DNA of 64,000 nt from positions 58,866 through 122,865 of the forward strand of contig CAYNUH010000002.1 of the NCBI GenBank assembly GCA_964400605.1, in the 5' to 3' direction. This document shows, piece by piece, positions 32,192 to 63,069 of this stretch. The stretch's first letter is position 1. Each line of letters begins with the position of its first letter. Under the pieces are notes generated by a model. It saw nothing but the letters and a program-made list of their open reading frames with translations, made no database searches and was not told the origin of the DNA. Source of the stretch: an uncultured Acidobacteriota bacterium. Its GTDB lineage: Bacteria > Acidobacteriota > Polarisedimenticolia > JACPZX01. The position numbers were made by a program, and so were the translations under genes.

Positions 32192-32192
32192 C

Positions 32193-42347: not shown

Positions 42348-42350
42348 GAC

Positions 42351-44928: not shown

Positions 44929-45664
44929 GGTTCGGGCCTCCCTTCACGTGGACCTCAATGCTGGTGACGTCAGTCCAGGATCCGTCGGGAGTCCTACCCT
45001 TGAAGACCTCGACGACGTGGTTGGCCTCCTTGGCGAGGGTGAAGGTGTATTTGCGGTGCAGCCCCTGCGGTCCGGACTTCACGGAGAGGCCGTTATCCCG
45101 GTTCTCCCACAGGGTGATCCCGCCGCGGAAAGGCTCGAAGTACTTGTGGAGCGACTTGGGCTTGCCGGTGTTGGTGTCGATCGGGAACTGCCGAGGAAGG
45201 TCCGCGAGGCTCATCGGAGGAAAGGATGGGAACGCCTGGCTACCCCTGGCCACGATGTTGATCCAGATCGCGTAATTGGGATCGCTGACGCTGAACTCCG
45301 CCTCCGAGATCGTCTTGACGAGGGAGCCGTCGTTCTTGTGCAGCGTGACGGAGTCGAGCTCGCTCGCCGGCTGCCCCCCCGTGTACGGGATGGCCTTGCC
45401 GAGCTGGAAGACGACCCCGTGCCAGAGCCTCTCTCTTTCCACCCAATTCCCGCCCTGGTACGTGAAGGTGTTGTTCTCGGCCATCCAGACAGCCGTGTCG
45501 TCGTCGTGGATGACAAGGGTCACTTCAGGCCCCCCCGCGACGATCGGAATGCCGACGAGTTGCAACTGGGGGGGCCTGGAGTAGAAGAAGTAGGAAAGAG
45601 CGAGCAGGGCCAGGATGGCCACGGCGAGAGATAGCGCCATCACTTGCGTCACATTCCGTTCCAT
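44894..45664 (-). CDS. membrane-anchored (signal-anchor) periplasmic hypothetical protein
   Basis: A GGAGGA ribosome-binding site; MERNVTQVMALSLAVAILALLAL TM; beta-rich soluble domain with no recognised family. Confidence 0.5.
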   Translation of the reverse strand: MERNVTQVMALSLAVAILALLALSYFFYSRPPQLQLVGIPIVAGGPEVTLVIHDDDTAVWMAENNTFTYQGGNWVERERLWHGVVFQLGKAIPYTGGQPASELDSVTLHKNDGSLVKTISEAEFSVSDPNYAIWINIVARGSQAFPSFPPMSLADLPRQFPIDTNTGKPKSLHKYFEPFRGGITLWENRDNGLSVKSGPQGLHRKYTFTLAKEANHVVEVFKGRTPDGSWTDVTSIEVHVKGGPNHGPIHNPPQKP

Positions 45665-45715
45665 TTTGGTCCTCCAAGCGGCGGCCCGAGGCCGCCGCAT
45701 CCGTCCGTCACGCGC

Positions 45716-48700
45716 TCAACGCCACTCTCCGGCCGCGACGAAGCCGCCCCAGGTGAAGGGGTCGGTTTCCCTCCCGGCCTCTCTCCGCCGCCGCAGGATC
45801 TCACGGCTCGCTTCGCGCACCGCCTCGGCCGTGCCGAGCCGGTCGCGGAGGCGCTTCTCGTACAGGATCCTCATCCACTCCCTCGCGGCGCGGTCCTCCA
45901 CCGGCCAGAGGCTCATGATCACCGTCCGGGCTCCCGCGATCTGAAAGGCGCGCCGCAATCCGAGCACCCCCTCGCCCGGACGGATCTCGCCGCCCCCAGT
46001 GTCGCAGCCCGACAGGACCGCCCACTCGACGCCCGCGAGGTTCAGCGTGGCGATCTCCGCCGCCGTCAGGATCCCGTCTTCCTCCTCAGGCGCCGCGGCG
46101 TCGCGCCGGTTGGCGCCCGCGAACGCGAGGCCAGCGAGGAGCAGGGGGTTTTCGTCCGTGGGAAGCGTCTGCGGCTCCGCGCTCACCGCGGTCGCGAGGC
46201 TTCCAATGCCGCGGCGGCCGGTCTCCTCCGTGGCGGCAGGACAGCCGCCGTCGAGGAAGAAGCCGTGTGTCGCGAGATGGAGGATCCGCCGTCCGGGCGC
46301 CGCCTCCTTGAATGCTGCTTCGGTCGCGCGGGGGCCGGCGAGGTACAGGGCGTTGCCAGCTTGTCCTTGTGGGGCCGCGCTCCTCCAGAGCGCCATGACT
46401 TCCTCCGCCTCCGCCCCGGAGGCTGGAAGGTCCCCGAACCGAAGCGTCCGGAGATCGCCGCAGGCGCGGCGCTCGCCCCTGAAGGAGCCCCCCGACCGAT
46501 CGGAACCAGGAGGGCTCCCCGGCGGCCGGACGGCCGCGAGTGCCGCCGCGGGCTCCTCGGGCCGCTCGTCGAAGGCCGGCCCGCCGAGCGCGAGGAGCCC
46601 CGCGCCGAGCGGCGCCGGGTCGCCGGAGGCGGCCACGTCCCGCTCGGCCGACAGGTAGTGGAAGAGGGGCCCCGACTCGATCAGGTAGGCTCCGTGGCCA
46701 TCGGGGAGCGCCGCGAAGCTCACCCTGTGGAGCGCGCCGTCCGGCACGATGAAGACGGCGGCGGTCCCGCTGACCGAACGGGCGACGGGGTCCCAGATCG
46801 CGCGGCGCAGGGCGTCGCCCGCGGTCCCGCCAGCGTCGAGGATGGGACCCGCGGGGGCCTCGCGAGATCCGCGGTGCTCCAGGATCTCGGCGCGCCAGCG
46901 CGCGACGGCGTGGTGGACCGCGCCAGCGGGGCCGAGATCGACGAAGCGGGGTTCGCCTCCTTCAGAAGAATGCACGAAGGCGGCGTACCTGCTCGCTGCC
47001 TTCCCCGGGTCCCGGAGGTCGTCGTAGAGCGTGTAGGCCACGAGCGCCGTCCCGGCTGGGAGCTTTCGCGTGATCTCCTCCAGACCGATCCCCTTCCGGC
47101 CGCCGGAGGGGGCGGGTGAGGCGCCGGACTCGGCCAGGAGACGCTCCAGCCGCTCCTTTTCCGCCCGCAGCGCCTCGAGGCGGGAGCGGTACGCGGCCAG
47201 GTTCTCGGCTTCCGATCCGCGCAGCGACTCCTGCGCCAGCCGTCGGGTGACCTGGATCAGATCCGAAGACAGCAGAGCGGCCTCCCCGATCGCCGTTTCC
47301 CCGGCGGAGCGCATGCGGGCGGCCATCTCGTCCAGGACGAGCGCGCGTGATCGGACGACGGCGTCCCACACTCTCCCACCCGCTCCCGGGATCCCTCCCG
47401 TCGCCGCTACCGTGAGGGCGAGATCGAGGGCCGAGGACCTGACCTCCGCATAGCGAAGCGCCTGCCTCTCGGGGAGCGTCCGCACCGTCAGGATCAGGTG
47501 TTCCCGACCGATCGCCTCGGCCAGGAGAGCCTGATCGAGCGCCGCCGAGGATTGCCCGCCCGCGAAGAGGACGAGGGCGAGATCTCTTCGGATCTCGGCC
47601 ACCTTCGGGTGCTGCGGCCCGAGGCTCCTCTCGGCGTTCCGCAGCGCTCGTTCGCCGGCCGCGCGCGCGCCCGCGAGGTCGCCCTCCTGGAGGTCCAGCC
47701 GCGCCGTCCCGCGGAGGGCCTCGGCCACGAGAGGATGCTCGCCGCCGACGGAGCCTCCAAGGATCCCGAGGGCGCGGCTGTAAAGCGCGCGGGCTTCTTC
47801 GCGATCGCCCGCCGTCGCGCGGAGGCCCGCGAGCCCCACGAGGCTTCGGGCGATCTCCGGGTGGGTGGCGCCCAGGTGCTTCTCCCGGATCGCGAGCGCC
47901 GCCTCGCAGAGGTAGCGCGCCCGGAGAGGATCCCCCATCTCGGCGAGGAGCAGTCCCAGACGCTCCTGGCTCCACGCGAGGTCGATGTGGCCGGGCCCCA
48001 GGGTGTGGCGCCGGATCTCGAGGGCGCTCTCGTACATCTCTCGCGCGCCCGACAGATCCCCAGTCCAATGGAGCAGCTCCGCGAGATCGTCCATGGTCTT
48101 CGCAACGCCGCGATCCTCGGGGCCGAGGGCCTTCCTCTGGATCTCTAGCGCGCGCTCGTAGAGGGAGCGCGCCGCGGCGTAGTCCCCTTCGCTGACGTGG
48201 TTATAGGCGAGATTGCTGAGGCTCCACGCGACGTGGAGGTGGTCGCCGCCAAGGCGCTTCTCGCGGATCGCCAGTGCACGCTCGTACAGATTCCGCGCGC
48301 GGGAGTACGCGCCCTCGGCCTCATGAAGCTCCGAGAGCCCGGTGAGCGTCCAGGCCACGTCGAGGCTTTCGGGGCCGAGGATCTCCTCCTGAATCGAGAG
48401 GGCTTCCTCGTACCGGGCCATCGCCCCTTTGTAATCGCCGCTTCCGTGGAGGGCAATTGCGAGGTTGTTCAGAGTCATCGCGACGTCGGCGTGCCGGCGG
48501 CCGTACGCCGCAGTGAGGATCCGCAGGGCCGCCTCGTAATCGCGGATCGCGGTGCGGTAGTCGCCGGAGCCGAACGACAGCCCGGCGAGATCGATGAGCG
48601 TCCGGGCGACGTCCGGGTCGTCCGGGCCGAGGAGCTTCCTCCTTAGCGCGAGGACACGGCGGTAGAGGCGGCCGGCCTCCGGGGTGTCGCCGGCCGCCTC

Positions 48701-49207
48701 GAGGACGCAGGCCAGGTTCCGCATGGAGGTCGCGACCTCGAGGTGCTCGGGGCCGAAGATCTCTTCCTTGATCCTCAGCGCGCGCTCGGCCGTCTCGCGG
48801 GCCTCGGGGCTTGACGCCCGGCCGCTCCTCCAGAAGACCTCGGCGAGGAGATCCATCGCCGCGGCGCTCTCGAGCGACCGTGGCCCGAAATCCGCGGTCA
48901 AGCGTGACAGCGCCTGCCGCGCGAGCGAATGCGCCTCGTCGAACCGGGCTCCCTTGAGGAGCGCCCGGGCCTCGTCCAGCGCCTGCCGCGCCGCGGAGTC
49001 GAGGGCGGGCGCTCCGCGCCCAGCCTCCTCCGCGGGGAGAGGATCCGCACGGGCTTCCCCTCCAGGGACCAGAAAGGAGAGGACGAGGCCCACGGCCAGT
49101 CGTCCGCACAGTCTGAGCGCCGCGGCTCCGAGCGCGGCGGATCCCCGGGCGGCGCGATCGTCCCCCCGTGCCTTCATTGCCTCGGATTCTCCAAGTCGAT
49201 CTGCCAC
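45716..49207 (-). CDS. secreted TPR-repeat protein with a C-terminal CHAT (caspase-like) protease domain
   Basis: Signal peptide; at least 10 TPR units (the AxxLxNLAxxxxxxGDY pattern); C-terminal CHAT with HLATHG (His) and LSGCDTG (Cys) dyad. The ATG at 49177 forms an ATGA overlap with the kinase stop; an alternative start is the GTG at 49207. Confidence 0.75.
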   Translation of the reverse strand: MADRLGESEAMKARGDDRAARGSAALGAAALRLCGRLAVGLVLSFLVPGGEARADPLPAEEAGRGAPALDSAARQALDEARALLKGARFDEAHSLARQALSRLTADFGPRSLESAAAMDLLAEVFWRSGRASSPEARETAERALRIKEEIFGPEHLEVATSMRNLACVLEAAGDTPEAGRLYRRVLALRRKLLGPDDPDVARTLIDLAGLSFGSGDYRTAIRDYEAALRILTAAYGRRHADVAMTLNNLAIALHGSGDYKGAMARYEEALSIQEEILGPESLDVAWTLTGLSELHEAEGAYSRARNLYERALAIREKRLGGDHLHVAWSLSNLAYNHVSEGDYAAARSLYERALEIQRKALGPEDRGVAKTMDDLAELLHWTGDLSGAREMYESALEIRRHTLGPGHIDLAWSQERLGLLLAEMGDPLRARYLCEAALAIREKHLGATHPEIARSLVGLAGLRATAGDREEARALYSRALGILGGSVGGEHPLVAEALRGTARLDLQEGDLAGARAAGERALRNAERSLGPQHPKVAEIRRDLALVLFAGGQSSAALDQALLAEAIGREHLILTVRTLPERQALRYAEVRSSALDLALTVAATGGIPGAGGRVWDAVVRSRALVLDEMAARMRSAGETAIGEAALLSSDLIQVTRRLAQESLRGSEAENLAAYRSRLEALRAEKERLERLLAESGASPAPSGGRKGIGLEEITRKLPAGTALVAYTLYDDLRDPGKAASRYAAFVHSSEGGEPRFVDLGPAGAVHHAVARWRAEILEHRGSREAPAGPILDAGGTAGDALRRAIWDPVARSVSGTAAVFIVPDGALHRVSFAALPDGHGAYLIESGPLFHYLSAERDVAASGDPAPLGAGLLALGGPAFDERPEEPAAALAAVRPPGSPPGSDRSGGSFRGERRACGDLRTLRFGDLPASGAEAEEVMALWRSAAPQGQAGNALYLAGPRATEAAFKEAAPGRRILHLATHGFFLDGGCPAATEETGRRGIGSLATAVSAEPQTLPTDENPLLLAGLAFAGANRRDAAAPEEEDGILTAAEIATLNLAGVEWAVLSGCDTGGGEIRPGEGVLGLRRAFQIAGARTVIMSLWPVEDRAAREWMRILYEKRLRDRLGTAEAVREASREILRRRREAGRETDPFTWGGFVAAGEWR

Positions 49208-50934
49208 ACCCAGATCCCGACGCCGGGGCTCCGGCCGCTGGAAATCCCGGCTATGACCGAAGAGAGGGTCCGGCGCCCGCCGGGTTCCGTCGGGGCGCCG
49301 GCGTCCGCCACGTGTCCGATCCCCCTCAGCGTCTCCTCCACCCGGCGGCCATCCATCTCGAAAGGCTCGCCGATCTCAGCTTTGGGAGTGCGTTCGATCT
49401 CCTGCGCCAGCGCCGGCAGAGGCTCCCGCGACGCGATCACGAGAACCGACTCCCGGCCTCCGGCGCTGCTGACGAGCCAGTGCTTGGGCCGCTCGTGAAG
49501 CGAGCCGGGGAGGCGGTGCCGCTGCCCGCCTGGCAGCGGGTTCCCCAGATCCAACTCCGGGAGCGGGAACAGCACGAAGGCGGAGCCCGCCTCGTCCTCG
49601 TCGAAGACGTAGACGTGCACGTCGTGCGAGGCCAGGATCTCGAGGAAGAGGTGATCGCCGGGCTCGACCGCGGCGCCGGGCCCGAGCCGCTCCTCGAGGG
49701 CCTCTCCGGCCCGGTAGAGGGAGGCCTCCACTTTGAGGTCTGAGGGAAGGACGAGCGGTCCGAGCAGGGCCCAGAGCCCGGCTGCGAAGAGGAGGGCGGA
49801 GCCCGCCAGCGCTGCGAGCGCTCCGGGGCGTCTCCACCAGGAAGGGGCCGGGAGCGGCGCCTCCGCGGGGGGGTGGGCGCCGACCGCGGCGCACAGATCG
49901 CGCTCCACTTCTCCGGCGGTCGCGTAGCGCCGGGAGGGATCGGGGTCGAGCGCCCGATCCACGATCGTGACGAAGGCCGCGGGGAGATCGGGACGGTGGC
50001 TCCGCAGCGGGGCCGACTCGCGGCCCCGGTGCCTTTCCTCCAGCTCGGCGAAGGATTTGGCCTCGACGGGAAAGCGGGCGGAGACGAGCCGGTAGAGGAC
50101 GACGCCCAGGGAGTAGATGTCGGACGCCGTGCCGGCGTCCTCGTTCCTGAACAGCTCCGGCGCCATGAAGAGAGGCGTGCCCGAGACCGTGTCGCCGCTC
50201 CGGGCCGCATCGAGAGGATCCCTCTCGGCGGAGGCGCTGAAGTCCATCAGAACGATGCGGCCGCCCGCCTCCCGCATGATGTTGGAGGTCTTGACGTCCC
50301 TGTGGATCAGTCCGGCGGCGTGGACCGCCGCGAGGGCGCGGCACAGATCGATGCCGATCATCGTGGCCTCGTCGGCGCCGAGGATCCCCTGCACTTTGAG
50401 GATCTCCTCGAGGGTCCTCCCCTCGATCAGCTCCGTCCAGAGGCCCACGCGTCCCGCGTGGCGGTCCGCGCCGAACACCCTGAGCACGCCCGGATGCCGG
50501 ACCCGGGCGAGCCGGCGGGCCTCGCTGAGGAACCGCTCCAGGCCCTTCTCGTCCTGCCGCCGATCCTCCCTCAGCAGCTTCAGCGCCACGTCGATCTGCA
50601 GCGACGGATCGTGAGCCCTGTACACGTCTCCCCAGGCCCCGCCTCCGAGCCGCGCCACGATCCGGAGCGGCCCCCAGGATACGGGCGGAGGCTGCGCCTC
50701 CAGGGCCGGCGACGGGGACCGATCCACCGTCGTCATCTCGCTGAGTCTTGCCATTGGCCCGATGGGAGCGGGGGGAAGCGATCCGTGCGCGGCCTGGATC
50801 GAGGCGATGAGCCGGAGCTGCTCGATCCGCCCGCGCACCTCGCTGCCCGCAGCCGCCTCGACCTCCCAGTCCACATCCCCTCCGTCGGCGACGGCCGCAG
50901 CGATCCTGATCAGCTTTCCGTCCTCAACGCTCAT
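49174..50934 (-). CDS. membrane Ser/Thr protein kinase (N-terminal cytoplasmic region, Hanks kinase, TM, C-terminal periplasmic domain)
   Basis: GxGxxGxV-like GGGAWGDVY, VALK, HRDVKTSN, DFS (DFG), APE. One TM helix; 11-nt overlap with the ECF sigma gene. Confidence 0.8.
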   Translation of the reverse strand: MSVEDGKLIRIAAAVADGGDVDWEVEAAAGSEVRGRIEQLRLIASIQAAHGSLPPAPIGPMARLSEMTTVDRSPSPALEAQPPPVSWGPLRIVARLGGGAWGDVYRAHDPSLQIDVALKLLREDRRQDEKGLERFLSEARRLARVRHPGVLRVFGADRHAGRVGLWTELIEGRTLEEILKVQGILGADEATMIGIDLCRALAAVHAAGLIHRDVKTSNIMREAGGRIVLMDFSASAERDPLDAARSGDTVSGTPLFMAPELFRNEDAGTASDIYSLGVVLYRLVSARFPVEAKSFAELEERHRGRESAPLRSHRPDLPAAFVTIVDRALDPDPSRRYATAGEVERDLCAAVGAHPPAEAPLPAPSWWRRPGALAALAGSALLFAAGLWALLGPLVLPSDLKVEASLYRAGEALEERLGPGAAVEPGDHLFLEILASHDVHVYVFDEDEAGSAFVLFPLPELDLGNPLPGGQRHRLPGSLHERPKHWLVSSAGGRESVLVIASREPLPALAQEIERTPKAEIGEPFEMDGRRVEETLRGIGHVADAGAPTEPGGRRTLSSVIAGISSGRSPGVGIWVWQIDLENPRQ

Positions 50935-51526
50935 CCATCACCTCGGCCAGCCGCACCAGCGCGCGGGCGACGATCATCCTTGCCGCGTTGGCGGAGGGGC
51001 ATCCGAGCGCCTCGGCGACCTCGCGGTGTGTGAATCCCATCTCGACCCTCATGATGACGGCCTCCTGGTGTTCCTCCGGGAGGGTGGAGAGGGCCCTTTC
51101 GTATCGGTCCAGGGCCTCTTTCCCGATCGCCTGCTCCAGAGGTGAGGGGCCGCCTTCCGGCATCTCCTCATCGAGCGATTTCCGCTCGGGCCTCCGATCC
51201 GACCGCCGGATCTCGTCCCGGATCTGGTTCAGCACGATCTGCCGCAGGTAGGCCAGGAAAGCGCCTTCGTGCCGCGGATCGAACCCCTTCATGCTGTTCA
51301 ACGCTCGGAGGAGGCCGACCTGCACGAGGTCGTCGGTGTCCAGGAGATCGCGCGCCCGGAGCGGCAACCGGCCGCGCGCCCAGCGCTGCAGAGGAGGAAG
51401 GAAGCGTCGGATCAGGCGCTCGCGTGCGGCGGCGTCACCGCCGCGGATGCGGGAGAGAAGGGAGGCGGTCGATTCGAGGCCGGCGGCCTGCTCGGCTGCG
51501 CCGGGATCCGGCCTGGAGTTCGCCAC
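50924..51526 (-). CDS. ECF-type RNA polymerase sigma factor (sigma-70 family regions 2 and 4)
   Basis: Region 2 (DLVQVGLLRA) and region 4 HTH (HREVAEALGCPSANAARMIVARAL); 200 aa. Confidence 0.8.
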   Translation of the reverse strand: MANSRPDPGAAEQAAGLESTASLLSRIRGGDAAARERLIRRFLPPLQRWARGRLPLRARDLLDTDDLVQVGLLRALNSMKGFDPRHEGAFLAYLRQIVLNQIRDEIRRSDRRPERKSLDEEMPEGGPSPLEQAIGKEALDRYERALSTLPEEHQEAVIMRVEMGFTHREVAEALGCPSANAARMIVARALVRLAEVMDER

Positions 51527-51879
51527 GGCACCCCCCGTGCCGGGGGCGGTCCCGAGGCCGCATCCGGGGCCGCCGGACGCGCGCCGGAACCCGCCGCCTT
51601 CCGCTCCCGCCGCGGGCCCACGGGAGGAGCGACTCGGGCGTTGCGGCGGCCGTCACCGCTCCAGGGCTCGACGGGGCGGCCGCTCGCGAGATGGGTCCGA
51701 TTCCAGGATGAATCCTGCGAGATTAACGAGCAGCCATCCTATCGTGGACGCCCGCCGGGTGTCAACGAACAGGCCATCCCGTCGCGAGGATCGGCCAGGA
51801 CGTCCCCTTGGGGCCCGCGAGGCGGGAGCCCGAGCCACTCCCCGAGTTCACGCTGCTCCGCCGCGCGCTGAAAGGTTGT

Positions 51880-52261
51880 GTAGGCGGCTCCGCGATCCGC
51901 GGCGGCCCGGACCGGGCTCGGTACCGCGCTGGCGGAGGAGGGCCTGCTCGACGAGGCGACCCGCTCGTTCCGCGAAGCGGTCGATCTCGATCCGGTCGAC
52001 GCCGACGCCCTGAGCCAGCTCGGGCAGGCGCTGCTCCTGCGCGGCCGGGGACGGGAGGCCGTGGATGTCCTGCGCCGGAGCCTGGCGGCCCAGCACGATC
52101 ACCGGCGAGCGCGCATCGGCCTGGCCGCGGCCCTGGTGAGCTTGGGTGAGCATCAGGAAGCGGGGCGTCTGTACCGCGCGGTGCTCGCCGAGGATCCAGA
52201 GGATCCGTGGGCCAACCGGGGCCTGGCCGAGCTCGAGAGGCGCGCAGGCCGCGGGCCGTGA
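51880..52261 (+). pseudogene. TPR-repeat gene fragment with no usable start (remnant)
   Basis: The frame is open from the TAG at about 51877 and encodes 2-3 TPR units (LGTALAEEGLLDEA...). The only in-frame start is the GTG at 52061, and there is no ribosome-binding site. Confidence 0.35.
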
Positions 52262-52320
52262 GTTCGAAGAGGATCGCCCGAGGGTTACCGGATCGCCTAT
52301 GGGCCCGACCGAGGGCGATG

Positions 52321-53580
52321 TCAGGCGGGCACGGGGAGGGTGATCACGAGGCGGGCCCCGCCGCCGGGGGCGCGCCCGAGGTGGAGCGCGCCCCCGTGCG
52401 ACTCGACGATCTTGCGCGAGATCGCGAGCCCGAGGCCGGTGCCTCCCGCGCGCGTGGTGAAGAAGGGCCGGAAGATCTCCTCCGCGATCTCCTGGGGGAC
52501 GCCCGGGCCGGTGTCCTCCACGGACATCTCCAGCCCGCCGCCTTCGAGCCGCCGGGCGGCGATGCGGATCTCCCCCGACCTGTTCATGGCCTGCGTGGCG
52601 TTGAGCACCAAGTTCACGATCACCTGCTGGATCTGGCCGGGGTCCATCGGAAAGGCGGGCAGATCTCTGGGCCCCCTGACTACAATCCTGATGTTTTTGA
52701 AGCGCGGCTCGTCGGAGATCAGCCTCACCGTCGTCCGGATCAGCTTGAGCGGATCCACCAGCTCCCGCGCCGGGAGCGAGGGGCGCGCGTAGATCAGCAG
52801 GTCGTTGACCTTCCCATCGAGGCGGCGGACCTCGTTGAGGATCTCGCCGAGGATTTCCTTGCGTGGCTCGTCGGGACGCATCTCCTGGCCGATCACCTGG
52901 ATCGCGCTGCTGATGGCGGTGAGGGGGTTGCGGATCTCATGAGCGATGACGGCGGCCACCTCGCCGATGGCCGCGAGACGGCGGAAGGTCGAGTTCTGCT
53001 CCGACTGGAGCATCTTCCTCGCCCAGTCCTCGCGGTACGTCTCCAGCATGAGGGCCAGCGAGAGGTCGAGGATCCTTACGAAGGCGCGCTGCACGGCCAC
53101 ACTGTGCGGCGTCCTCCGCGGGTAGGCGCGAAAGAGGACCCGGTTCAGGTGCTCGCGGAAGACCTGCATCCCGGCCACCATGTACGACTGATCGAGCCCC
53201 ACCTGGACGTGCCGGGTCCCGATCGCCGACTGCAGCCCGGCGTACTCGGCGTCGTGCGGTCCCTTCAGCGTGCGATCGAGCCATACCCTCAAGGTCGACT
53301 TCAACCGGGCGACCTGCTGGTCCCCGCCCGTGATGACCCCGCGGGCGAGGGGGTCCGCTTCGATCCTCGCGTAGAAGTCGTCGAGGATCCCGTCGAGGTG
53401 CGGCTGCACCTTGGGATGGAAGGAGGCCAGGAGGGAGGAATCCCTCTTCGTGAAGCCGACATAGTCCGCGAGCCGGGAGAAGAGAGAGGCGGGGTCGGAC
53501 CCGCCTGCGGCCGCGGCCGGCGCCGCGGCGCGGCGGGCGCGGGCGGGTGGGGCTGCGGAGTGGGAACGCGCGGGCGTCAT
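52321..53580 (-). CDS. globin-coupled sensor histidine kinase (protoglobin domain plus HisKA plus HATPase)
   Basis: The N-terminal approximately 150 aa match protoglobin/GCS blocks: ILDDFYARI, LKSTLRVWLDRT, YAGLQSAIGTRHV (proximal His). These are followed by H-box HEIRNPL and the G1/G2 boxes. Confidence 0.65.
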   Translation of the reverse strand: MTPARSHSAAPPARARRAAAPAAAAGGSDPASLFSRLADYVGFTKRDSSLLASFHPKVQPHLDGILDDFYARIEADPLARGVITGGDQQVARLKSTLRVWLDRTLKGPHDAEYAGLQSAIGTRHVQVGLDQSYMVAGMQVFREHLNRVLFRAYPRRTPHSVAVQRAFVRILDLSLALMLETYREDWARKMLQSEQNSTFRRLAAIGEVAAVIAHEIRNPLTAISSAIQVIGQEMRPDEPRKEILGEILNEVRRLDGKVNDLLIYARPSLPARELVDPLKLIRTTVRLISDEPRFKNIRIVVRGPRDLPAFPMDPGQIQQVIVNLVLNATQAMNRSGEIRIAARRLEGGGLEMSVEDTGPGVPQEIAEEIFRPFFTTRAGGTGLGLAISRKIVESHGGALHLGRAPGGGARLVITLPVPA

Positions 53581-53632
53581 CGTGCGGCCGCTGGCCGGCC
53601 GCAACGGAGTATATCCGACGCCCGTCCGGGCG

Positions 53633-54477
53633 TCAGCGCGGGGCGCGCCAGCAGCCGGTGACCGTGGCGGTGCCCGGCGCGGCCGCCTCGACCGTCACGC
53701 CGAGATCCTCGCGTCCGGCGGGCGCCTCCACGTCGCCCCCGCCCCGCGCCAGGAGAGCCTCGTACTCCAGGGGGTGCTCCTCCTTCATCTCGTCGAGCGA
53801 GATCTTGCCGTCGAGCCAGATCCGGCTCATCGGGAAGGCTCCGGGTCTGAAGTGCACCTGGTACATGTGCCAGATGATGATGGCCAGGAACGCGAGGATC
53901 GCTTCGTAGGAGTGCACGACGCGCACCAGGTCGAAGACGTAGCGCGGGAAGAGGGCCATGGTGGCCTCCTCGAACCAGAGCATCAGGCCGGTGCCAGCCA
54001 TCAGCAGACTTCCCCAGACCACAGCCAGATACTCGAACTTCTCGATGAAGGTGTAGCGCCCGTAGCGGGGGTGCGTCTCGGGAAGCCACTGGCTCCAGCG
54101 CCGGCGCAGGAGCCGCCCGCGCGCGGTGCGCCTCAGCCATCGCACGGCGCCGCTCTGATGGGCCAGCGTGCCGACGGCGTCTCGCGCGTCCTGCATCCTC
54201 GGAAGCAGACCCTTGAAGTCTCGGTTGCCGCGCCCGGAGAGCAAGATGTAAAGGAGGTGGGCGAAGCACAGGATGATCAGCCCGACGCCCGCGATCCGGT
54301 GCATGAGCCCGCGGATCCAGAAGAGGTCGCCGCGCGACAGGACGCTCTTCAGCATCGGCGAGGGATCGAAGATCATGGGAAGGCCCGTCAGCACGAGGAG
54401 CGTGAAGGTGGCGATCAGGACGCCGTGCTGCACCCTCTGCGAGAGAGGCATCCGCATGATCTCGCGCCGATCGCTCA
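53633..54477 (-). CDS. b-type cytochrome membrane subunit (FdnI/HydC/PhsC-like, 4-5 TM)
   Basis: 281 aa. TM helices contain conserved His (HGVL, HRIAG, HLLY, HSYE, HMYQ). The N-terminal half of the tracked ORF is the cyt c gene read out of frame. The start may be off by 1 nt. Confidence 0.6.
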
Positions 54478-55482
54478 TCCGCTTCTCCCGCCGGGCCCGG
54501 AGCGCTCCCCGGCGCGGCGCCGCAGCCGGTGGGTCAGGTCCGCCACCATGAAGACGGCGAAGACAGCCATCATCGACGCGATCATCCCCTGGTAGAACCT
54601 CCGAGCCACGTACGTGAAGGGGTTGTCCTCCCACCGGTCCTCCAGGTGGACCTTCCCGATGGCGAAGTTTCTGCCGGCCTGCAGGTGGCAGTGGCCGCAC
54701 GTGGCCGGGAGATTGGCGGAGTTGATGGTGGACCTTTCGTCGCGCGAAGGGAGAATCCTGTGCACGCCGTGGCACGAGGCGCAATTGGCCACAGTCCGGT
54801 CTCCGTACTCCCCGGCGAGGCCGTGGAAGCTCCCCAGGAATGTCTGCAGGCGCGCCGGCGGCAGGCTGTACTTGCGCACGATCTCCTCGTCGTCGTGGCA
54901 TCGGGTGCAGGTGGGAGCCAGGGCCGAGGCGTTCACGGGTGAGTTGGGGTCGCCCTTGGGAACGATCCTGTGCCCCCCGTGGCAGGTCAGGCAGGTCGGC
55001 ACATCGGGGTTCCCCTTCTTGAGTTCGGTCCCGTGGATCCCCTCCATGTATTCGTGGACGATCTCCTCGTGGCAGCTCCCGCACATGGCGGACAGGTGCG
55101 CCCCCACCTTCGCCGGCCTCGATCCACCTCCCGCCTCGTCGATCGCGTGCGTTCCGTGGCAGTCGGCGCAGGCGGGGGGGTGGCCGGGGGCGACGGAAGC
55201 GTCGTGGCAGGCGGTGCAGTCCACGGCCGCGGGTTGCGGGTGGGGGAATTCCTGCACGTCTGCGAGATCGGTGTGGCAGGACGCACACTCCAGCCCCGCA
55301 TTCCCGTGGACCGAGGATCGGAGCAGCGCGCCCAGGTCGTGGCAGTCGGCGCAGTTCGGGGTTTCCTCCGCGGTCACCGGGGCCGCCGCCGCTCCGGGCA
55401 GGATGAACCCTCCGGCCGCCAGCAAGGCGAGCGGGAGCAACCGGCGACACTCCCGGCGGGCGGACGGCCGCTTGCAGGACAT
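54475..55482 (-). CDS. multiheme c-type cytochrome (9 CXXCH) with a C-terminal TM helix
   Basis: Signal peptide; nine motifs (2x CADCH, 2x CASCH, then CTACH, CGSCH, CLTCH, CTRCH, CGHCH); a GGAGG ribosome-binding site 7 nt before ATG 55482. Confidence 0.75.
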   Translation of the reverse strand: MSCKRPSARRECRRLLPLALLAAGGFILPGAAAAPVTAEETPNCADCHDLGALLRSSVHGNAGLECASCHTDLADVQEFPHPQPAAVDCTACHDASVAPGHPPACADCHGTHAIDEAGGGSRPAKVGAHLSAMCGSCHEEIVHEYMEGIHGTELKKGNPDVPTCLTCHGGHRIVPKGDPNSPVNASALAPTCTRCHDDEEIVRKYSLPPARLQTFLGSFHGLAGEYGDRTVANCASCHGVHRILPSRDERSTINSANLPATCGHCHLQAGRNFAIGKVHLEDRWEDNPFTYVARRFYQGMIASMMAVFAVFMVADLTHRLRRRAGERSGPGGRSG

Positions 55483-55603
55483 CTCCACGCCTCCGTAGAG
55501 ACTTTCAGCAACCCGCGTACCAACCGATGGCGTCGCGTGACCGCCGCTTGGCCGCCGTTCGGCGGCCGAGCGCCCGCGGTGGCACAGGTGCTGCTACAGA
55601 AAG

Positions 55604-55869
55604 GGGTGAAAGAGATGGAGGAGCCGCAAACGAAGCCCCCAGAGGACTCGATCATGTCCGACCAGAAGAAGATCCGGGAGAAGATCAAGGAGATGCGCGA
55701 GCTTGTGAGGGTCGGCAAGGAGCGCATAGCCACGCACTCGCCGGTCTGGGCCGTCTACCTGACGGGCGAGACGCTGCGCTCGTTGAGCCAGGTGCTCGAC
55801 GCTCTCGATCGGGAGCTGGACGCGCCGGTCGAGAAGGAATGGAACGCGCGCGCCCGGCGGACGGGCTGA
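55604..55869 (+). CDS. small hypothetical protein (about 88 aa)
   Basis: An AAAGGGGTGAAAGAG ribosome-binding-like region precedes the ATG. Lys/Glu-rich N-terminus. No recognised family. Confidence 0.3.
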
Positions 55870-55975
55870 ACCCGCAGCCCGCGAAGCCAGCCGCAGACGA
55901 AGGCCGTGGAGGCAGCACCATGCACACCATCCGACTGGCAAGCGCCGAGGACCCGCTCGCGCTGACGCTGACTCT

Positions 55976-56935: not shown

Positions 56936-57328
56936 TCACTTCCGCGGGAGCAGCTCCCGGATCGTCGCCAGCAGGTGCTGCGGATCGAAGGGCTTCGTGA
57001 TGTAGCGGTTCGCGCCCCAATCCATCCCTTCCTGGATGTCCTGGGGGGCGTCCTTCGCCGAGACGATCACGATGGGCAGATCCGGCCGCAGCTCCCGGAG
57101 TGCGTGGGTGGAAGTCGTGCCGTCGAACCGCGGCATCATGATGTCCATCAGCACGAGGTCGGGCTGGAAGTCGAAGTTCTTGTGCACGGCCATCGGGCTG
57201 TCCGTGGCGACCTCCACCTCGTAGCCCTCGGCGCGAAGCAGGTCGCTCACGATGCGGTTGTGGTGCGGGTCGTCGTCCACGATCAAGATCCGGGCCCCCC
57301 TGGGGGCTGTCTCGGCGCTCATGCTCAC
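56936..57328 (-). CDS. single-domain response regulator (receiver)
   Basis: DDD...D...K receiver; 130 aa. Confidence 0.7.
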   Translation of the reverse strand: MSMSAETAPRGARILIVDDDPHHNRIVSDLLRAEGYEVEVATDSPMAVHKNFDFQPDLVLMDIMMPRFDGTTSTHALRELRPDLPIVIVSAKDAPQDIQEGMDWGANRYITKPFDPQHLLATIRELLPRK

Positions 57329-57367
57329 CTCCGCGGAGGGGCCGGGGCTCCCGCCCCGGTCCCTCGA

Positions 57368-58930
57368 TCACCCTCCGGACCGGCCGGTAGGGTCTCGTTC
57401 CTGGTTGGCGCCTCGGGCCTCGCCCCTCGCCGGCGGCGGCGCGGCGGGAAGCCGGAGGGTGAATGTCGAACCTCCACCGGGACGGCTCTCCACGGTGACG
57501 TCGCCTCCCATGAGGCGGGCCAGCTTCCGCGATATGGCCAGCCCGAGGCCCGTGCCCCCGTACGCCCGGGTGTCGGACCCGTCGAGCTGGCGGAAGCTGT
57601 CGAAGATCGCTTCCTGGTCCTCGGGCGCGATGCCGATCCCCGTGTCCCGCACGGTGAAGGCGGCGCCGCCTCCGGCGGCCGGGCGCGTGCCGAGGACGAT
57701 CTCGCCCCTGGGACTGAACTTGACGGCGTTGCCCAGGAGATTCAACAAGATCTGCCGGACGCGCGAGCGATCCGAGGTCACGACGAGACGCCCGTCCTCC
57801 GACTCCACCCTCACGTCGAGTCCCTTCTCCTCCGCCAGCGGGCGCACCGTCTCGAGGGTCTCCGCCGCAAGATCTCCCGCGCTGAAGGTTGTCAGGGTCG
57901 TGCTCAGCCGGCCCGCCTCGACCTTGGATATGTCGAGGACGTCGTTGATCAGGTTCAGCAGCGCGGAGGAGGTCTCCGCGATCCCCGCCAGCGCCTCGCG
58001 CTGGGCCGCGGTGAGGTCCCCGTACAGCCCCCGCCGCAGCAGAGACGTGTACCCCATGATCGCGTTCAGCGGGGTTCGCAGTTCGTGCGACATGGTGGCC
58101 AGGAAGGAGCTCTTCATCCGCGAGGCCCGTTCCAGCTCGAAGTTCTTGGCCTCGATCTCCTCCTGCTTGCGGGCGATGGTGGCCCGCGCGCGATCGAGAT
58201 CCTGTACCATCTGGTTGAAGGCGTCCGCCACGCGCGAGAACTCGCTGTCGAGGTGCATCCGGACACCGGCGCTCAGATCCCCCCGTGCGACCGACTCGAG
58301 CGCGCTGGCCATCACGGGCAGGGGCGCGAGAACGTGGCGGCGGATCCCGGCGACGCTCGCGAGGCCGACGGCGACGATCAGGACGAGCGCCGCGATCTGC
58401 GCGCCGTGGAAGCGGGCCAGCGTATCGTTCACCTCCGCCGTCAGCGCGGCGACCACCTCGCCCATGCACGCCTGCACCTGAAGCGACCGCTCGAGGATCA
58501 TCCCCCGGTAGGGGGCGGAGACTTCGTACGCGTCCAGCCGCGCCCAGGTCTCCAGGTCGCCGGCGACCGATTGATGGTACCGGGCGAAGGCGGTGCGCAC
58601 GCGCCCGAGGGCCCCGAGGGTGGCCCGGTCCCGCGTGCCCGCGAGGCCGCGGGCGGTGTCGCCGCGCTCCAGCGCCTCCACGGTCCTCTCGAAGGCCGCG
58701 AGGTTCTCGAAGATGCCTTCGAGCCTCTCGCGCCCGCCGTCGCGGATGTACTGGAGCGACTCGGCCGTGGTGGCCACGATGCGGGCGCGCTCGGCCGAGG
58801 CGGCCTCCAGCATGCGGCTGTCGGAGGAGAGGAGCCGGGCGAAGTAGAGGTTGCTGGCCAGAATGCTGGCGGCCAGGGCCGTCGTGATGGACACGGCGGC
58901 GTACATCCGGCGGCGGATGGAGATCTTCAC
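57368..58930 (-). CDS. sensor histidine kinase (periplasmic 4-helix sensor, HAMP, HisKA, HATPase)
   Basis: The GTG start forms a GTGA overlap with the upstream RR stop. H-box HELRTPL; N, G1 and G2 boxes. Confidence 0.8.
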
Positions 58931-59346
58931 CCACCACTCTCCCGGGCCGAGAGGAGGCGGCCGACCTCGTCCACGAGGACCATCGGGTCGATGGGCTTGG
59001 CCAGGTAGCCGTCGCAGCCAGCGGCGAGAGCCGCCTCGGCGTCGTCGCGCATGGCGCGCGCGGTCAGGACGAGGACCAGAGGGGGACGCGGAGCGAGATC
59101 CAGCTTCATGCGGCACATGGCTTCGATGCCGGTCATCCCGGGCAGGGCCACGTCCATCACGACGAGATCGGGGCGGAGGGCGGCCGAGAGCCGCAGGGCC
59201 TCGGGCCCGTCGATCGCCTCGTGGATCTCGAAGCCGGCGGCGCGCAGGGCGAGGGCGTTGATCCGGCGTGTGTGCACGTCATCATCCACCAGGAGGATCC
59301 GCGCCGCGGGACGCCCGCCGTCCCCTGATAGATCGGTCATCGGCAA
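58927..59346 (-). CDS. single-domain response regulator (receiver)
   Basis: ILLVDDD...D(54)...K; 139 aa. Confidence 0.7.
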
Positions 59347-59620
59347 CCCATCCTCATCGTGCAGCCGGATGGATGGTCAAGGTGCGTGCCATCGCGCGAA
59401 CCGCGGAGGCGGCCCTTCCCGGCCCGCAAGTGGCTCACGGGGAGAGGATAACCGAAGAGGGACCCGGCGTGGTCCTGCCCTCCGGGGAGGCGCGCGGTGC
59501 GGGATATCCTCCGCGATGCGCGAAACGACGCAGGCCGGGCTCTTCTCACAGGCTCCCGCCGGAGCGTGGCACCTGGTCTGCTATCCTGCCGCGGCCCCGC
59601 GACGGCCGCCGGAGCACACC

Positions 59621-61057
59621 ATGAGAGTCTTCCGATGGATGCGCGATCTCCTGAGCGCCTCCCTCAGGGATCCGATCAGCCTCCTGGGCGCCGCGCTGGC
59701 CTCGGTGGCGACCGCCCTCATCCTCACGATTCTCCTGCTCGACATCCTCGGCTTCCACACGAACCCGTACGTGGGCGTGCTCACATTCCTCGTCCTTCCG
59801 GGCGTCTTTCTGTTCGGCCTCATCCTCGTCCCCATCGGCGTGCTCCGGGAGCGGAGGCGCTCCGGCGCCGGGGTCCATGGCGGCGTCTTCCCCGTCATCA
59901 ATCTGAACCTGGACCATCACCGCAGCCGCTTCCTGGGCTTCTCGGTGCTGACGTTCGTGAACCTGGTCATCCTAGCCACGGTCTCGTACCGGAGCGTGGA
60001 GCACATGGACTCGGTGCAGTTCTGCGGTCAGACGTGCCACAGCGTCATGGATCCCGAGTTCACCGCGTACAGGCGGTCTCCCCATTCGCGGGTCGCCTGC
60101 GTCGCGTGTCACATCGGCCCCGGCGCCGGCTGGTTCGTGAAGTCGAAGCTCTCGGGGACGTGGCAGGTCTTCGCCGTCACCTTCCAGACTTTCGAGCGGC
60201 CGATACCGGTCCCCGTGAGGAACCTCCGGCCCGCGCGCGAGACGTGCGAGCAGTGCCACTGGCCCGAGAAGTTCCATGGCGACCGGATCAAGGTGAAGAC
60301 GACGTACTCGCTGGACGAGAAGAACACCGAGCTGAAGACCGCGCTGATCCTCAAGGTCGGAGGCGGCAGCCTCGAGTCCGGGTTCGCTTCCGGGATCCAC
60401 TGGCACATGAACATCGCCAACGAGGTGACCTACGTCGCGGACGACGAGGCCCGGGAGAAGATCTCGTTCGTCCGCTTCAAGGACCGCGCCGGGAGGGTGA
60501 CCGATTACCTGAAATCCGGCGCCTCGAAGCCGGGCAATGAGACGATAGCGGCGTCCGGCCGCCGCATGGACTGCGTGGACTGCCACAACCGCCCCACCCA
60601 CGTCTTCAAGATGCCGGGCGCGGAGGTGGACGAGGCGATGCGCTCCGGCAAGATCGACAGGACGCTCCCGTTCATCAAGAAGGTGTCGGTGGAGACTCTC
60701 TCGCGGCCGTACGATTCGCGGGGCCAGGCCGCGCAGGCGATCCCTGTGCTGCTCGACGACTACTACCGCAAGAACTACCCCGCGCTCCTGTCGGAGAAAC
60801 CGGACGCCATCCGCATCGCGGGCACGGCGCTCGCGGAGATCCACGGGGCGAACGTCTTCCCGGAGATGAAGATCACGTGGGGCACCTACCCCAACCACAT
60901 CGGCCACAACGACTCGCCGGGCTGCTTCCGCTGCCACGACGGAGAGCACGCGAGCGAGGACGGCAGGCTCATCAGCAACGAGTGCGAGACCTGCCACACG
61001 CTCCTGGCCCTGGAAGAGGAGAACCCCGAGATCCTCACGCGGCTGTTCCCCCCGTAG
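59621..61057 (+). CDS. membrane-anchored multiheme c-type cytochrome (2 N-terminal TM helices, 6 CXXCH)
   Basis: CGQTCH, CVACH, CEQCH, CVDCH, CFRCH, CETCH. The upstream 190 aa of the tracked ORF are read-through. Confidence 0.7.
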   Translation: MRVFRWMRDLLSASLRDPISLLGAALASVATALILTILLLDILGFHTNPYVGVLTFLVLPGVFLFGLILVPIGVLRERRRSGAGVHGGVFPVINLNLDHHRSRFLGFSVLTFVNLVILATVSYRSVEHMDSVQFCGQTCHSVMDPEFTAYRRSPHSRVACVACHIGPGAGWFVKSKLSGTWQVFAVTFQTFERPIPVPVRNLRPARETCEQCHWPEKFHGDRIKVKTTYSLDEKNTELKTALILKVGGGSLESGFASGIHWHMNIANEVTYVADDEAREKISFVRFKDRAGRVTDYLKSGASKPGNETIAASGRRMDCVDCHNRPTHVFKMPGAEVDEAMRSGKIDRTLPFIKKVSVETLSRPYDSRGQAAQAIPVLLDDYYRKNYPALLSEKPDAIRIAGTALAEIHGANVFPEMKITWGTYPNHIGHNDSPGCFRCHDGEHASEDGRLISNECETCHTLLALEEENPEILTRLFPP

Positions 61058-61072: not shown

Positions 61073-62329
61073 TCAGGCCGCGGCGGAGGCCGCCTCGTGG
61101 GCGGCGAAGGCCCTTCTGACCTGGCGCTCGAACCTCCAGGCGAACATGCGGGACATCGCCCTCAGCTTGATCTCCTTCCTCCAGTAGCGCCGCGGGTTGT
61201 CCGTAAGCCACCGGCATTCCTCCGGCAGGAGTACGAGGCTGACGTGGATGTTGGGGGCGACGCCGATGGGGAGGCCGCGCTCCATGCAGGATTCGTAGAG
61301 CCGTCTGAAGACCGGCACTAGATCCTCCGTGCGGGGCGGCGGGACGTCCTCGTAGTCGGTCCCCTTCAGAGGCCGGAAGACGCACACGGTGGGGATGGCC
61401 CCCACGCTGGTGATCCAGTCGATGGCCGCGATGGAGGATTCGGGCTTCTCCAGCCCGGCGATGATCTCGCCGTTGGACACCCACGGGTCGAAGCCGCCCT
61501 TGCGGCCCAGCCTGGCGCAGTAATCCACGGCGGCGAGGTACCGCTTCAGGCCGTACTGGCGGTGTTTGCCGGGGCAGACCTCGATGAAGCGTTGCGGATC
61601 GAAGATCTCGAAGCAGAACGAGACCCGGTTGGCGCCCATCTCCTTGAGGGCGTCGTACCGGCGCAGGTCGTGGTGCGGGGGCGTCTGCACGCCCACCAGC
61701 AGCCCCGTCTCCTTCTTCACGCGACGGATGTAAGGCTCGAGGATGTCGAGGTAGGTGTCGCCCTCGTAGTGGCCCGTGTTGAAGTCCACGTAGGTGATAC
61801 CGGATTCGAGCCGGGCCGCGTGCACAACCTCCAGCACCTCGTCCACCGATTTCGTGTCCGCGTCGTCCACCCCGAGGTTCAGCCCCACGGAGCAGAACTT
61901 GCAGTTCTCCTTGTCGGGCTTCGCCAGCCAGTACTCGCACACCTTGGCCGGGTAGACTCCCAGGTACGTCCCCTGCAGCGAGCCGATGCGCGTCATCGGC
62001 TTGCCCGTGGAGGTCTGGCGGTCGTACCAGCCCGGCCGCGGCGAGAGGGTGACGGGGGCGATGGGTTCGGCACCCCTGAAGAGGGTGTACCGGCCGTCGG
62101 CCCTGTGCAGCACGTACGCCGAGCGGGAGGCAAAATCCTCGCAGACCGGCACGTTGGTCCACAGCCCGCCCGGCAGGACCAGCTCCAGCCCGCTGCCCAA
62201 CCCGGCGCGGGTGCGCATGATGCCGCGCCCGCCGTCCTCCTCGATAAAGCAGGAGTCGTCGAGCCGCATCCCCTTGCAGTAGAGGTCCAGCTTGAGGAGC
62301 GCGGGGTTGGTGCGGACGTCGGTGTCCAT
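61073..62329 (-). CDS. putative radical-SAM/TIM-barrel Fe-S enzyme with a non-canonical Cys triad (CX11CX2C)
   Basis: C-EYWLAKPDKEN-C-KF-C followed by Gly-rich and other SAM-radical-like blocks. The family assignment is tentative. Confidence 0.4.
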   Translation of the reverse strand: MDTDVRTNPALLKLDLYCKGMRLDDSCFIEEDGGRGIMRTRAGLGSGLELVLPGGLWTNVPVCEDFASRSAYVLHRADGRYTLFRGAEPIAPVTLSPRPGWYDRQTSTGKPMTRIGSLQGTYLGVYPAKVCEYWLAKPDKENCKFCSVGLNLGVDDADTKSVDEVLEVVHAARLESGITYVDFNTGHYEGDTYLDILEPYIRRVKKETGLLVGVQTPPHHDLRRYDALKEMGANRVSFCFEIFDPQRFIEVCPGKHRQYGLKRYLAAVDYCARLGRKGGFDPWVSNGEIIAGLEKPESSIAAIDWITSVGAIPTVCVFRPLKGTDYEDVPPPRTEDLVPVFRRLYESCMERGLPIGVAPNIHVSLVLLPEECRWLTDNPRRYWRKEIKLRAMSRMFAWRFERQVRRAFAAHEAASAAA

Positions 62330-62797: not shown

Positions 62798-63069
62798 CTC
62801 GTCCCTCCCCGGGATCTCCGTCCCGTGTTCCGCACAAGCTACGGCCGCCGGCGGCGGGGGAGGTATGACACCGGTCATAGGGAAGCCGCCGGTGGATCGT
62901 GGGGATGGCGCGGATGCGCCGCCGGTCGATCTTGGGTCATGCGGCGAGGCGGGCCGGCCCGGAGTGGGGCAAACGTCGCTGTCTGAGGGTTTTCGCGCGG
63001 GCTGGGCGGGCATTCCCCCTCCGAGGATTGATGTCAGATCCCTACGCTAGCAAGGGGCGCGCCAGGAGT

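Follow-up and report, generated by a model that had tools for sequence, protein, structure and literature searches.

A candidate haem-sensor/NtrC-type regulatory circuit beside a Cbc-like cytochrome module in the genome of an uncultured bacterium

We analysed a 64 kb stretch of DNA (the window; G+C content about 70%) from an uncultured bacterium, whose proteins have their closest named relatives in metagenome-assembled genomes filed as Acidobacteria. Three co-directional genes on the minus strand, spanning positions 52321-55482, encode a nonahaem cytochrome c, a dihaem cytochrome b and a globin-coupled histidine kinase, and their positions agree with those given in the initial annotation. Comparison with related loci suggests that the kinase works with an NtrC-type regulator encoded elsewhere in the window and that, with fair probability, the two belong to a haem-sensor circuit controlling quinol:cytochrome modules, including the adjacent cytochrome c/b pair. 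In the 5' to 3' direction of the minus strand, the three genes are:

54475..55482, minus strand: nonahaem cytochrome c (335 aa) with a Sec signal peptide, nine CXXCH motifs and a C-terminal transmembrane anchor
53633..54478, minus strand: FdnI/HydC-type dihaem cytochrome b (281 aa; PF01292) with four transmembrane helices
52321..53580, minus strand: soluble globin-coupled histidine kinase (419 aa, ATG start) with the Pfam domain order Protoglobin-HisKA-HATPase_c

The gap between the stop codon of the cytochrome b gene and the ATG of the kinase gene measures 52 nt, close to the 50 nt estimated initially. Residues 33-185 of the kinase matched the Protoglobin family (PF11563, E=1.3e-29), and the remaining domains were identified as HisKA (E=2.5e-14) and HATPase_c (E=9.2e-27). 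The globin domain was aligned over 157 residues with the structure of AfGcHK, the globin-coupled histidine kinase of Anaeromyxobacter sp. Fw109-5 (PDB code: 5OHE; E=8.6e-30). In this alignment H124, which the initial annotation had singled out in the motif IGTRHV as the proximal histidine of a globin domain, corresponds to His99 of AfGcHK, Y70 to Tyr45 and L93 to Leu68. These three residues are invariant in 17 homologues, as are the H-box histidine H214 and the residues of the N, G1 and G2 boxes (N327, D356/G358/G360 and G380-G384). No transmembrane segments were predicted in the kinase, and it has the order sensor globin-HisKA-HATPase_c in common with AfGcHK and with NmpU of Myxococcus xanthus; homologues from Anaeromyxobacteraceae are about 39% identical to it. 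These data support the assignment of the N-terminal domain to the AfGcHK type of sensor globins, with predicted haem binding. The kinase core scored best against AtoS and ZraS, which are partners of NtrC-type regulators.

Close relatives of the window locus all come from metagenome contigs. In six other loci (L003, L005, L006, L092, L093 and the short L004) the cytochrome b is 62-76% identical to that of the window, and in 6/6 of them the globin kinase gene follows the cytochrome b gene. The complete order cytochrome c-cytochrome b-globin kinase is kept in all of these loci except L004, which ends too early. The preservation of this order at such a divergence of cytochrome b indicates that the linkage of the cytochromes to the sensor is conserved and not accidental. 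In the same five loci, the globin kinase gene is followed by the genes for a PAS kinase, a tetrahaem cytochrome and an NtrC-type regulator. The next gene after the regulator in the close loci often encodes CcmF, which occupies the same position as in the window in L003 and in L087, a locus that contains this sensor cassette without the cytochrome pair. The window encodes the corresponding proteins as follows:

40125..41465, minus strand: membrane-anchored PAS histidine kinase with PAS, HisKA and HATPase_c domains and N-terminal transmembrane segments
39649..40146, minus strand: tetrahaem Cytochrome_C554-like periplasmic cytochrome (PF13435, E=1.4e-13) with four CXXCH motifs and a signal anchor
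38040..39413, minus strand: NtrC-type sigma-54 activator response regulator with the Pfam domains REC-AAA+-HTH_8
35780..38032, minus strand: CcmF-type cytochrome c maturation protein (Cytochrom_C_asm and CcmF_C), directly downstream of the regulator gene

A tblastn search with the L005 genes located the PAS kinase, the tetrahaem cytochrome and the regulator on the same strand of the window with 65%, 69% and 84% identity, respectively; in L005 the PAS kinase gene comes right after the globin kinase gene. An NtrC-type regulator was found in the same cassette as the globin kinase in every relative examined. The window regulator, whose Walker A motif is GESGTGK, shows 79-84% identity to its counterparts in L003, L005, L006 and L087. 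It is also 70% and 68% identical to the regulators of L088 and L089, two more distant relatives (globin kinase identity 48% and 45%) in which the regulator gene directly follows the globin kinase gene and overlaps its end by 4 nt. These adjacent kinase-NtrC pairs, together with the AtoS/ZraS-like kinase core, make the regulator encoded at 38040..39413 the expected partner of the globin kinase, and on the basis of these comparisons we consider it the likely one.

In the window, the regulator gene is located 13 kb downstream of the globin kinase gene. Between the globin kinase and PAS kinase genes lies a block that L003, L005, L006, L092 and L093 do not have at this position. The block and its genes, classified with Pfam, are:

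41600..52320, minus strand: inserted block of about 10.8 kb, found at that position in the window only; the lower boundary is approximate
50924..51526, minus strand: extracytoplasmic function (ECF) sigma factor
49174..50934, minus strand: Ser/Thr kinase with DUF4384
45716..49207, minus strand: TPR-CHAT protein of 1163 aa
44894..45700 and 42847..44928, minus strand: two proteins without a Pfam family, 268 and 693 aa

The regulator gene is thus separated from the kinase gene because of a lineage-specific insertion. Neither flanking or terminal repeats nor marks of a mobile element were found around the block, its only repeats being TPR-coding ones, and no mobility genes were seen within it. The best explanation of the present arrangement would be an ancestral locus composed of three units, namely cytochrome c-cytochrome b-globin kinase, PAS kinase-tetrahaem cytochrome and NtrC-type regulator-CcmF, with the insertion placed between the first and the second unit. 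On the plus strand, a TPR-like frame (51884..52261) is convergent with the globin kinase gene and ends about 60 nt past its stop codon. With no start codon ahead of 52061, the frame is possibly what remains of a gene at the insertion edge.

The PAS kinase and tetrahaem cytochrome genes overlap by 22 nt. The tetrahaem protein has about 165 aa in the close loci. In L087 (10401..11855) a kinase without a PAS domain and the tetrahaem cytochrome form one in-frame protein, in which a transmembrane helix joins the two parts. This fusion suggests that the kinase reads the periplasmic cytochrome, that is, a periplasmic redox input.

The intergenic regions of the locus contain the following candidate promoter elements, listed together with the small open reading frame (ORF) that is divergent from the cytochrome genes:

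55507..55522, minus strand: P1, sigma-54-type promoter TGGTACGCGGGTTGCT, preceding the cytochrome c start by about 25 nt
55580..55595, plus strand: P0, divergent sigma-54-type promoter TGGCACAGGTGCTGCT, facing the small ORF and a class IV aminotransferase gene
41537..41552, minus strand: P2, sigma-54-type promoter TGGCATGTCGGTTGCG, upstream of the PAS kinase gene
39514..39529, minus strand: P3, sigma-54-type promoter TGGCATGCCCGTTGCC, upstream of the regulator gene
53608..53613, minus strand: hexamer TATACT resembling a -10 box, between the cytochrome b and kinase genes; CTGACG is located 17 nt upstream of it
55654..55866, plus strand: small conserved ORF of about 70 aa without a Pfam family, read from P0

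P1 is the sole exact match to TGGYAC-N5-TTGCW in the 64 kb, where 0.03 matches were expected. Its position and sequence, including the TGAA and the GGAG ribosome site that follow, are kept in L003, L005, L006 and L092. When up to one mismatch to the sigma-54 consensus was allowed, five matches were obtained in the window against 0.87 expected; three more of the five are located before a NapC/NirT-like cytochrome gene (59567), before a hemerythrin-radical SAM gene pair (63064) and at 35072. P0 is kept in L003, L005, L006, L087 and L092. The P2 element, TGGCAC-N5-GTTGCC, is found in the same place in L003, L005, L006, L087, L092 and L093, and P3 is kept in these six loci as well as in L090 and L091. 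The small ORF is present in all loci of the clade and showed 56% identity (tblastn) to the 70-aa ORF of L005. In the relatives, the small ORF and the class IV aminotransferase gene are separated by a porphobilinogen-deaminase-like gene, which is missing from the window (55867..55975).

The globin kinase appears to have a promoter of a different kind. A TATACT, TATAAT or TATAGT hexamer precedes its gene in L003, L005, L006, L087, L090, L091, L092 and L093, in DNA with about 70% G+C. Because this -10 box is kept even in relatives without the cytochrome pair, the kinase most likely has a sigma-70-type promoter to itself. Transcripts started at P1 may extend into the kinase gene as well, as no credible terminator was found in the 52-nt gap between the cytochrome b and kinase genes. 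A terminator-like hairpin at 53506..53487 falls within the coding region of the kinase; it was disregarded for this reason and because terminators were no more numerous than expected by chance. The transcriptional linkage of the three genes put forward in the initial annotation thus has to be qualified: the gap has no terminator, but the conserved -10 box implies that the kinase probably has a promoter of its own. Just past the stop codon of the tetrahaem cytochrome gene and about 85 nt upstream of P3, we noted a 32-nt palindrome, CCCGCTGGTGCGCTAAAATACGCACCCGCGGG (39610..39641, minus strand). It is kept in L005 and L006 (three loci with the window), where similar elements also occur after the globin kinase stop codon; a hairpin for termination and a site for an activator are both conceivable.

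The cytochrome b matched Ni_hydr_CYTB (PF01292) with E=6.4e-14. Hydropathy and the AF2 model (pLDDT, the model's confidence score, 80) both gave four transmembrane helices, and not the five assumed in the initial annotation; the cytochrome c anchor supplies the fifth helix of the complex. A Foldseek search of the PDB with this model returned FdnI, the gamma subunit of Escherichia coli formate dehydrogenase-N, as the top match (1kqf_C; E=3.4e-6, TM-score 0.78, probability 1.00), and the cytochrome b of hydrogenase-1, HyaC (4gd3_A), as the second. In an alignment with FdnI, its haem ligands H18, H57, H155 and H169 correspond to H18, H60, H189 and H204 of the window protein, and these four do not vary across 20 homologues. 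Both profile searches proposed with the initial annotation, for Protoglobin and for Ni_hydr_CYTB, gave significant matches; the globin fold was found in the kinase and the haem-ligating histidines in the transmembrane helices of the cytochrome b. FdnI and the window protein share the four-helix fold and all four ligands, and in both cases the partner subunit is held by a C-terminal helix. However, they are only 19% identical, the window protein contains an Arg-rich insertion of about 40 residues between helices 2 and 3 that FdnI does not have, and its partner is a multihaem cytochrome c instead of an iron-sulphur (FeS) subunit.

The likeness to FdnI agrees with the source annotation, according to which the cytochrome b would be the gamma subunit of a formate dehydrogenase or hydrogenase; homologues carry the Joint Genome Institute (JGI) label 'cytochrome b subunit of formate dehydrogenase'. 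This assignment is hardly tenable. The score against the TIGR01583 equivalog model was 48.5 bits, compared with a cut-off of 115.85. Neither the window nor any of 87 loci has a molybdopterin, [NiFe] or FeS subunit gene beside the cytochrome b gene; the neighbours are cytochromes and kinases, and across the 87 loci the upstream partner was always a multihaem cytochrome c. With a score so far under the cut-off and no catalytic subunit encoded nearby, the annotation as a formate dehydrogenase gamma subunit is not supported.

The start codon of the cytochrome b gene overlaps the stop codon of the cytochrome c gene by 4 nt (ATGA at 54478..54475). This overlap, the nine CXXCH motifs and the C-terminal transmembrane helix all agree with the initial annotation. 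The motifs begin at residues 44, 66, 89, 105, 134, 164, 192, 234 and 262, and the single transmembrane helix covers residues 296-317 approximately. The Pfam matches were of the Cytochrome_C7/c3 type, and a sequence search of the PDB gave only marginal matches (E>0.04). Across four cytochrome c orthologues, 9/9 CXXCH motifs are invariant together with nine more histidines, which is the number needed for bis-His ligation of nine haems. A histidine of the C-terminal anchor (DLTHR) was considered as a fifth, required haem ligand, by comparison with CbcA and CbcL, and was rejected because it is not kept in the clade.

The architecture of the pair supports its classification as a Cbc-like module, as was proposed in the initial annotation, and it looks like a split form of CbcL. 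According to a preprint on CbcBA, CbcL is a fusion of a dihaem b-type cytochrome with a nine-haem c-type cytochrome. CbcL (GSU0274 of Geobacter sulfurreducens), which we compared by its published description, combines nine c haems with an FdnI/HydC-like dihaem b at the inner membrane, as in the window. If the cytochrome c anchor is counted as helix 1, the published distribution of histidines over the helices of CbcL is also that of the window, although the histidine in the window anchor is not conserved. The two systems differ in that CbcL is one polypeptide with six transmembrane helices, whereas the window encodes two translationally coupled genes with 1+4 helices; CbcL is reported to be constitutive, whereas the window pair is preceded by a sigma-54 promoter motif; and the host of CbcL is Geobacter, whereas that of the window is uncultured and has its closest relatives among genomes filed as Acidobacteria. 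Fused proteins encoded in related loci connect the two arrangements. Residues 42-329 of the window cytochrome c are collinear with the c domain and first transmembrane helix of a 713-aa fused protein of L088 (35.5% identity), residues 8-242 of the cytochrome b are collinear with its b part (36.4% identity), and a 950-aa fused protein of L003 is likewise collinear with both window cytochromes. In a literature search, we found nothing relevant on CbcL in Acidobacteria or Aminicenantes.

The cytochrome b belongs to a wider family. A profile scan of species-representative genomes recovered only relatives with 39-49% identity, and the close clade was absent from them. This wider family comprises 80 loci from Aminicenantes, Terriglobia, Abyssubacteria, Poribacteria and other groups, and its direct upstream partner is usually an 11-haem cytochrome c, often accompanied by 9-haem and 4-haem cytochromes. 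In L007-L086 we observed a widespread cluster of 9-haem, 4-haem, 9-haem and 11-haem cytochrome c genes followed by the gene for this FdnI-like cytochrome b; genes for fused 19-haem/cytochrome b proteins of about 930-1000 aa are sometimes located near this cluster.

These observations can be combined into the following working model. The cytochrome pair would be a two-subunit 'bc' module of the inner membrane, in which a periplasmic bis-His nonahaem cytochrome c is docked on a four-helix dihaem cytochrome b, and would represent a split form of the fused multihaem/cytochrome b proteins, of which CbcL is the studied example. Most likely, this module moves electrons between menaquinol and periplasmic cytochromes; the specific role in extracytoplasmic electron transfer that had been suggested initially was not supported. 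The globin kinase would be made constitutively from its own sigma-70-type promoter, its haem would report O2 or else NO, CO or the redox state of the iron, and it would phosphorylate the NtrC-type regulator. The membrane PAS kinase with the periplasmic tetrahaem cytochrome could provide a second input, the redox state of the periplasm. The phosphorylated regulator would then activate P1 (cytochromes c and b, with read-through into the kinase gene), P0, P2 and P3, the last of these by autoregulation. The identities of the genes, the ligand residues, the conserved gene order and promoter motifs and the orthology of the regulator are observed; the phosphotransfer, the activator acting on P1, the ligand that is sensed, whether the response to it is positive or negative, and the direction in which electrons flow are inferred.

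The position of the cassette in related loci is consistent with a regulator of this kind. In L088, L090 and L091, the globin kinase/NtrC cassette is flanked by Rieske/cytochrome b/multihaem and NapC-like operons with sigma-54 motifs. The window contains a Rieske-bc1/b6f-type cytochrome b-multihaem cytochrome c operon at 31751..34482 (plus strand), and modules like it flank the cassette in these three loci. Taken together, the location of the cassette beside other quinol-oxidising modules and the Rieske operon of the window fit a role of the NtrC-type protein in regulating alternative respiratory modules. A more detailed and decidedly tentative version of the model would be a two-input switch, in which the globin kinase (O2, NO or haem redox state) and the PAS kinase/tetrahaem cytochrome converge on one NtrC activator that chooses the quinol:cytochrome module to be made (CbcL-like, Rieske/cytochrome b-multihaem or NapC-like).

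Several observations weigh against the proposed circuit. The four-gene sensor cassette occurs in L087, L090 and L091 without the cytochrome c/b pair, which suggests that the pair is an accessory neighbour and not an obligate target, and none of the 80 loci of the wider cytochrome b family (0/80) has a protoglobin gene within 10 kb. The sigma-54 contact loop of the window regulator (around residue 216) reads GSFTDA and not GAFTGA; G(S/A)FTDA was found in 8/8 examined regulators linked to these globin kinases. P1 (TGGTAC..TTGCTGAA) differs in detail from P2 and P3 (TGGCAC..GTTGCC), so that another sigma-54 activator could serve P1, and a candidate for it is the NrfD-linked HAMP kinase/NtrC pair at 21596..24646. 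In the regions upstream of P1, P0, P2 and P3 we found no activator-binding dyad common to P1 and P2/P3, whether of the NmpR type (GCGCA-N5-TGCGC) or of another. Moreover, the link of the pair to CbcL is drawn from architecture and fused relatives.

The presence of the cassette without the pair, the promoter differences, the lack of a common dyad, and the second NtrC-type regulator and other kinases encoded in the window could all be accommodated if the cytochrome genes were neighbours of the cassette without a regulatory link. The cassette would then control its own genes, the tetrahaem cytochrome, CcmF and the small ORF/aminotransferase genes, and the pair would have been acquired nearby, with P1 under another sigma-54 activator. 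We regard this as unlikely, because seven loci, with cytochrome b identities of only 62-76%, have the pair located between the divergent P0 and the kinase gene, because no terminator separates the cytochrome b and kinase genes, and because the same cassette is flanked elsewhere by different sigma-54-driven cytochrome modules, which is the pattern expected of their regulator. The globin might also serve as a sensor of haem sufficiency, reporting the holo or apo state and gating the synthesis of cytochromes with a high haem demand (9 c + 2 b + 4 c haems) along with genes that supply and attach haem. CcmF is among the regulon candidates, a porphobilinogen-deaminase-like gene follows the small ORF of P0 in relatives, and in Myxococcus the haem-less NmpU variant H96A loses its autokinase activity (PMC11841059). 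However, the window lacks the HemC-like gene, O2 binding in AfGcHK is tuned by a distal Tyr and a Leu that are both invariant here, and the studied members of the family respond to the haem ligand or redox state (PMC8697598); sensing of haem sufficiency is in our view improbable. The initial annotation had suggested an orphan gas-sensing kinase, which would act on the neighbouring cytochrome complex with no response regulator of its own. It is true that no regulator gene directly follows the kinase gene in the window, although a stand-alone receiver is encoded at 56936..57328, 1.45 kb upstream of the cytochrome c gene. The orphan status itself was not upheld: the family is always encoded with an NtrC-type sigma-54 activator, the orthologous regulator is present in the window, and its distance from the kinase is due to an insertion found here only. 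We therefore consider an orphan kinase very improbable, and favour the haem-sensor/NtrC circuit.

The candidate circuit can be compared with two studied systems. In M. xanthus, NmpU acts via the hybrid kinase NmpS on the NtrC-like NmpR, which autoregulates and controls cbb3 oxidase, hemN and hemerythrin genes, an oxygen-utilisation regulon (PMC11841059). The NmpRSTU system resembles the circuit proposed for the window in that an NtrC-like sigma-54 activator, with autoregulation and respiration-related targets, stands at the end of the pathway. The hemerythrin-radical SAM pair with its sigma-54 motif recalls the hemN-hemerythrin target of NmpR. In contrast to the Nmp system, the cassette is embedded among multihaem cytochrome operons, and neither a double receiver of the NmpT type nor a receiver-HisKA hybrid of the NmpS type is present in it, in the window and nine related loci. 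The second kinase of the window, with a transmembrane-PAS-HisKA-HATPase architecture, no receiver domain and a tetrahaem cytochrome as its companion, is unlike NmpS. Since the kinase and the NtrC-type regulator form a simple adjacent pair in L088 and L089, direct transfer without an inverter is expected. AfGcHK is reported to be active with O2 bound (PMC11841059; PMC8697598). By extrapolation, if the window kinase behaved like AfGcHK and there were no inverter, induction would follow oxygen or oxidising conditions. We found no description in the literature searched of a globin kinase embedded among multihaem cytochrome operons.

The second system is the separate CbcBA pair; according to the CbcBA preprint, BccR is the regulator that induces it, through a sigma-54 promoter. 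The pair shares with the window a separate b subunit, a multihaem c subunit anchored by a C-terminal helix, and an operon with a sigma-54-type promoter; BccR, a REC-AAA+-HTH (helix-turn-helix) regulator, is encoded beside that operon and is required for its expression. CbcA has seven haems and the window cytochrome c nine, and CbcB reportedly has three histidines, with the fourth supplied by CbcA, whereas the b subunit of the window contains all four, as FdnI does. No globin kinase is described for BccR. The system in the window thus combines features of the Nmp and the BccR-CbcBA systems.

Other genes of the window were also inspected. One sigma-54-type motif (59567..59582, plus strand) is located 39 nt upstream of the gene for the NapC/NirT-like multihaem cytochrome (59621..61057), and another (63049..63064, minus strand) about 170 nt upstream of the hemerythrin (62330..62878)-radical SAM (61073..62329) pair, which is adjoined by a gene for a Crp/Fnr-type regulator (63070..63786). 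A receiver-HAMP histidine kinase-receiver triad (56936..59346, minus strand) lies between the aminotransferase and NapC-like cytochrome genes and is kept in L006 and L087. Stand-alone receivers are encoded at 35222..35773, 56936..57328 and 58927..59346. At 20353..24646 (plus strand), the gene for an NrfD-like membrane protein is followed by those for a HAMP histidine kinase and for the second NtrC-type regulator of the window (23297..24646), whose contact loop is the canonical GAFTGA; this set is another pairing of a quinone module with sigma-54 control in the window.

The analysis revises the label 'formate dehydrogenase cytochrome b subunit' given in the source annotation and illustrates how a local insertion can make a kinase look like an orphan. 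The biochemistry of globin-coupled histidine kinases is well characterised, but only for the Myxococcus Nmp system are the physiological targets known, and what is known of how bacteria regulate their alternative quinol:cytochrome c modules of the inner membrane comes mainly from a single Geobacter case, BccR-CbcBA. The locus described here and its relatives connect both subjects, as a haem-sensor cassette is found repeatedly among sigma-54-driven multihaem operons of uncultured sediment bacteria. If the circuit is right, it offers testable promoters, a kinase-regulator pair and candidate targets for the oxygen or redox control of electron transport in a poorly studied phylum. If the two-input switch were true as well, uncultured Acidobacteria-like bacteria would have a sensor-driven counterpart of the choice that Geobacter makes between ImcH, CbcL and CbcBA according to potential, and globin-coupled kinases would gain a defined physiological output.

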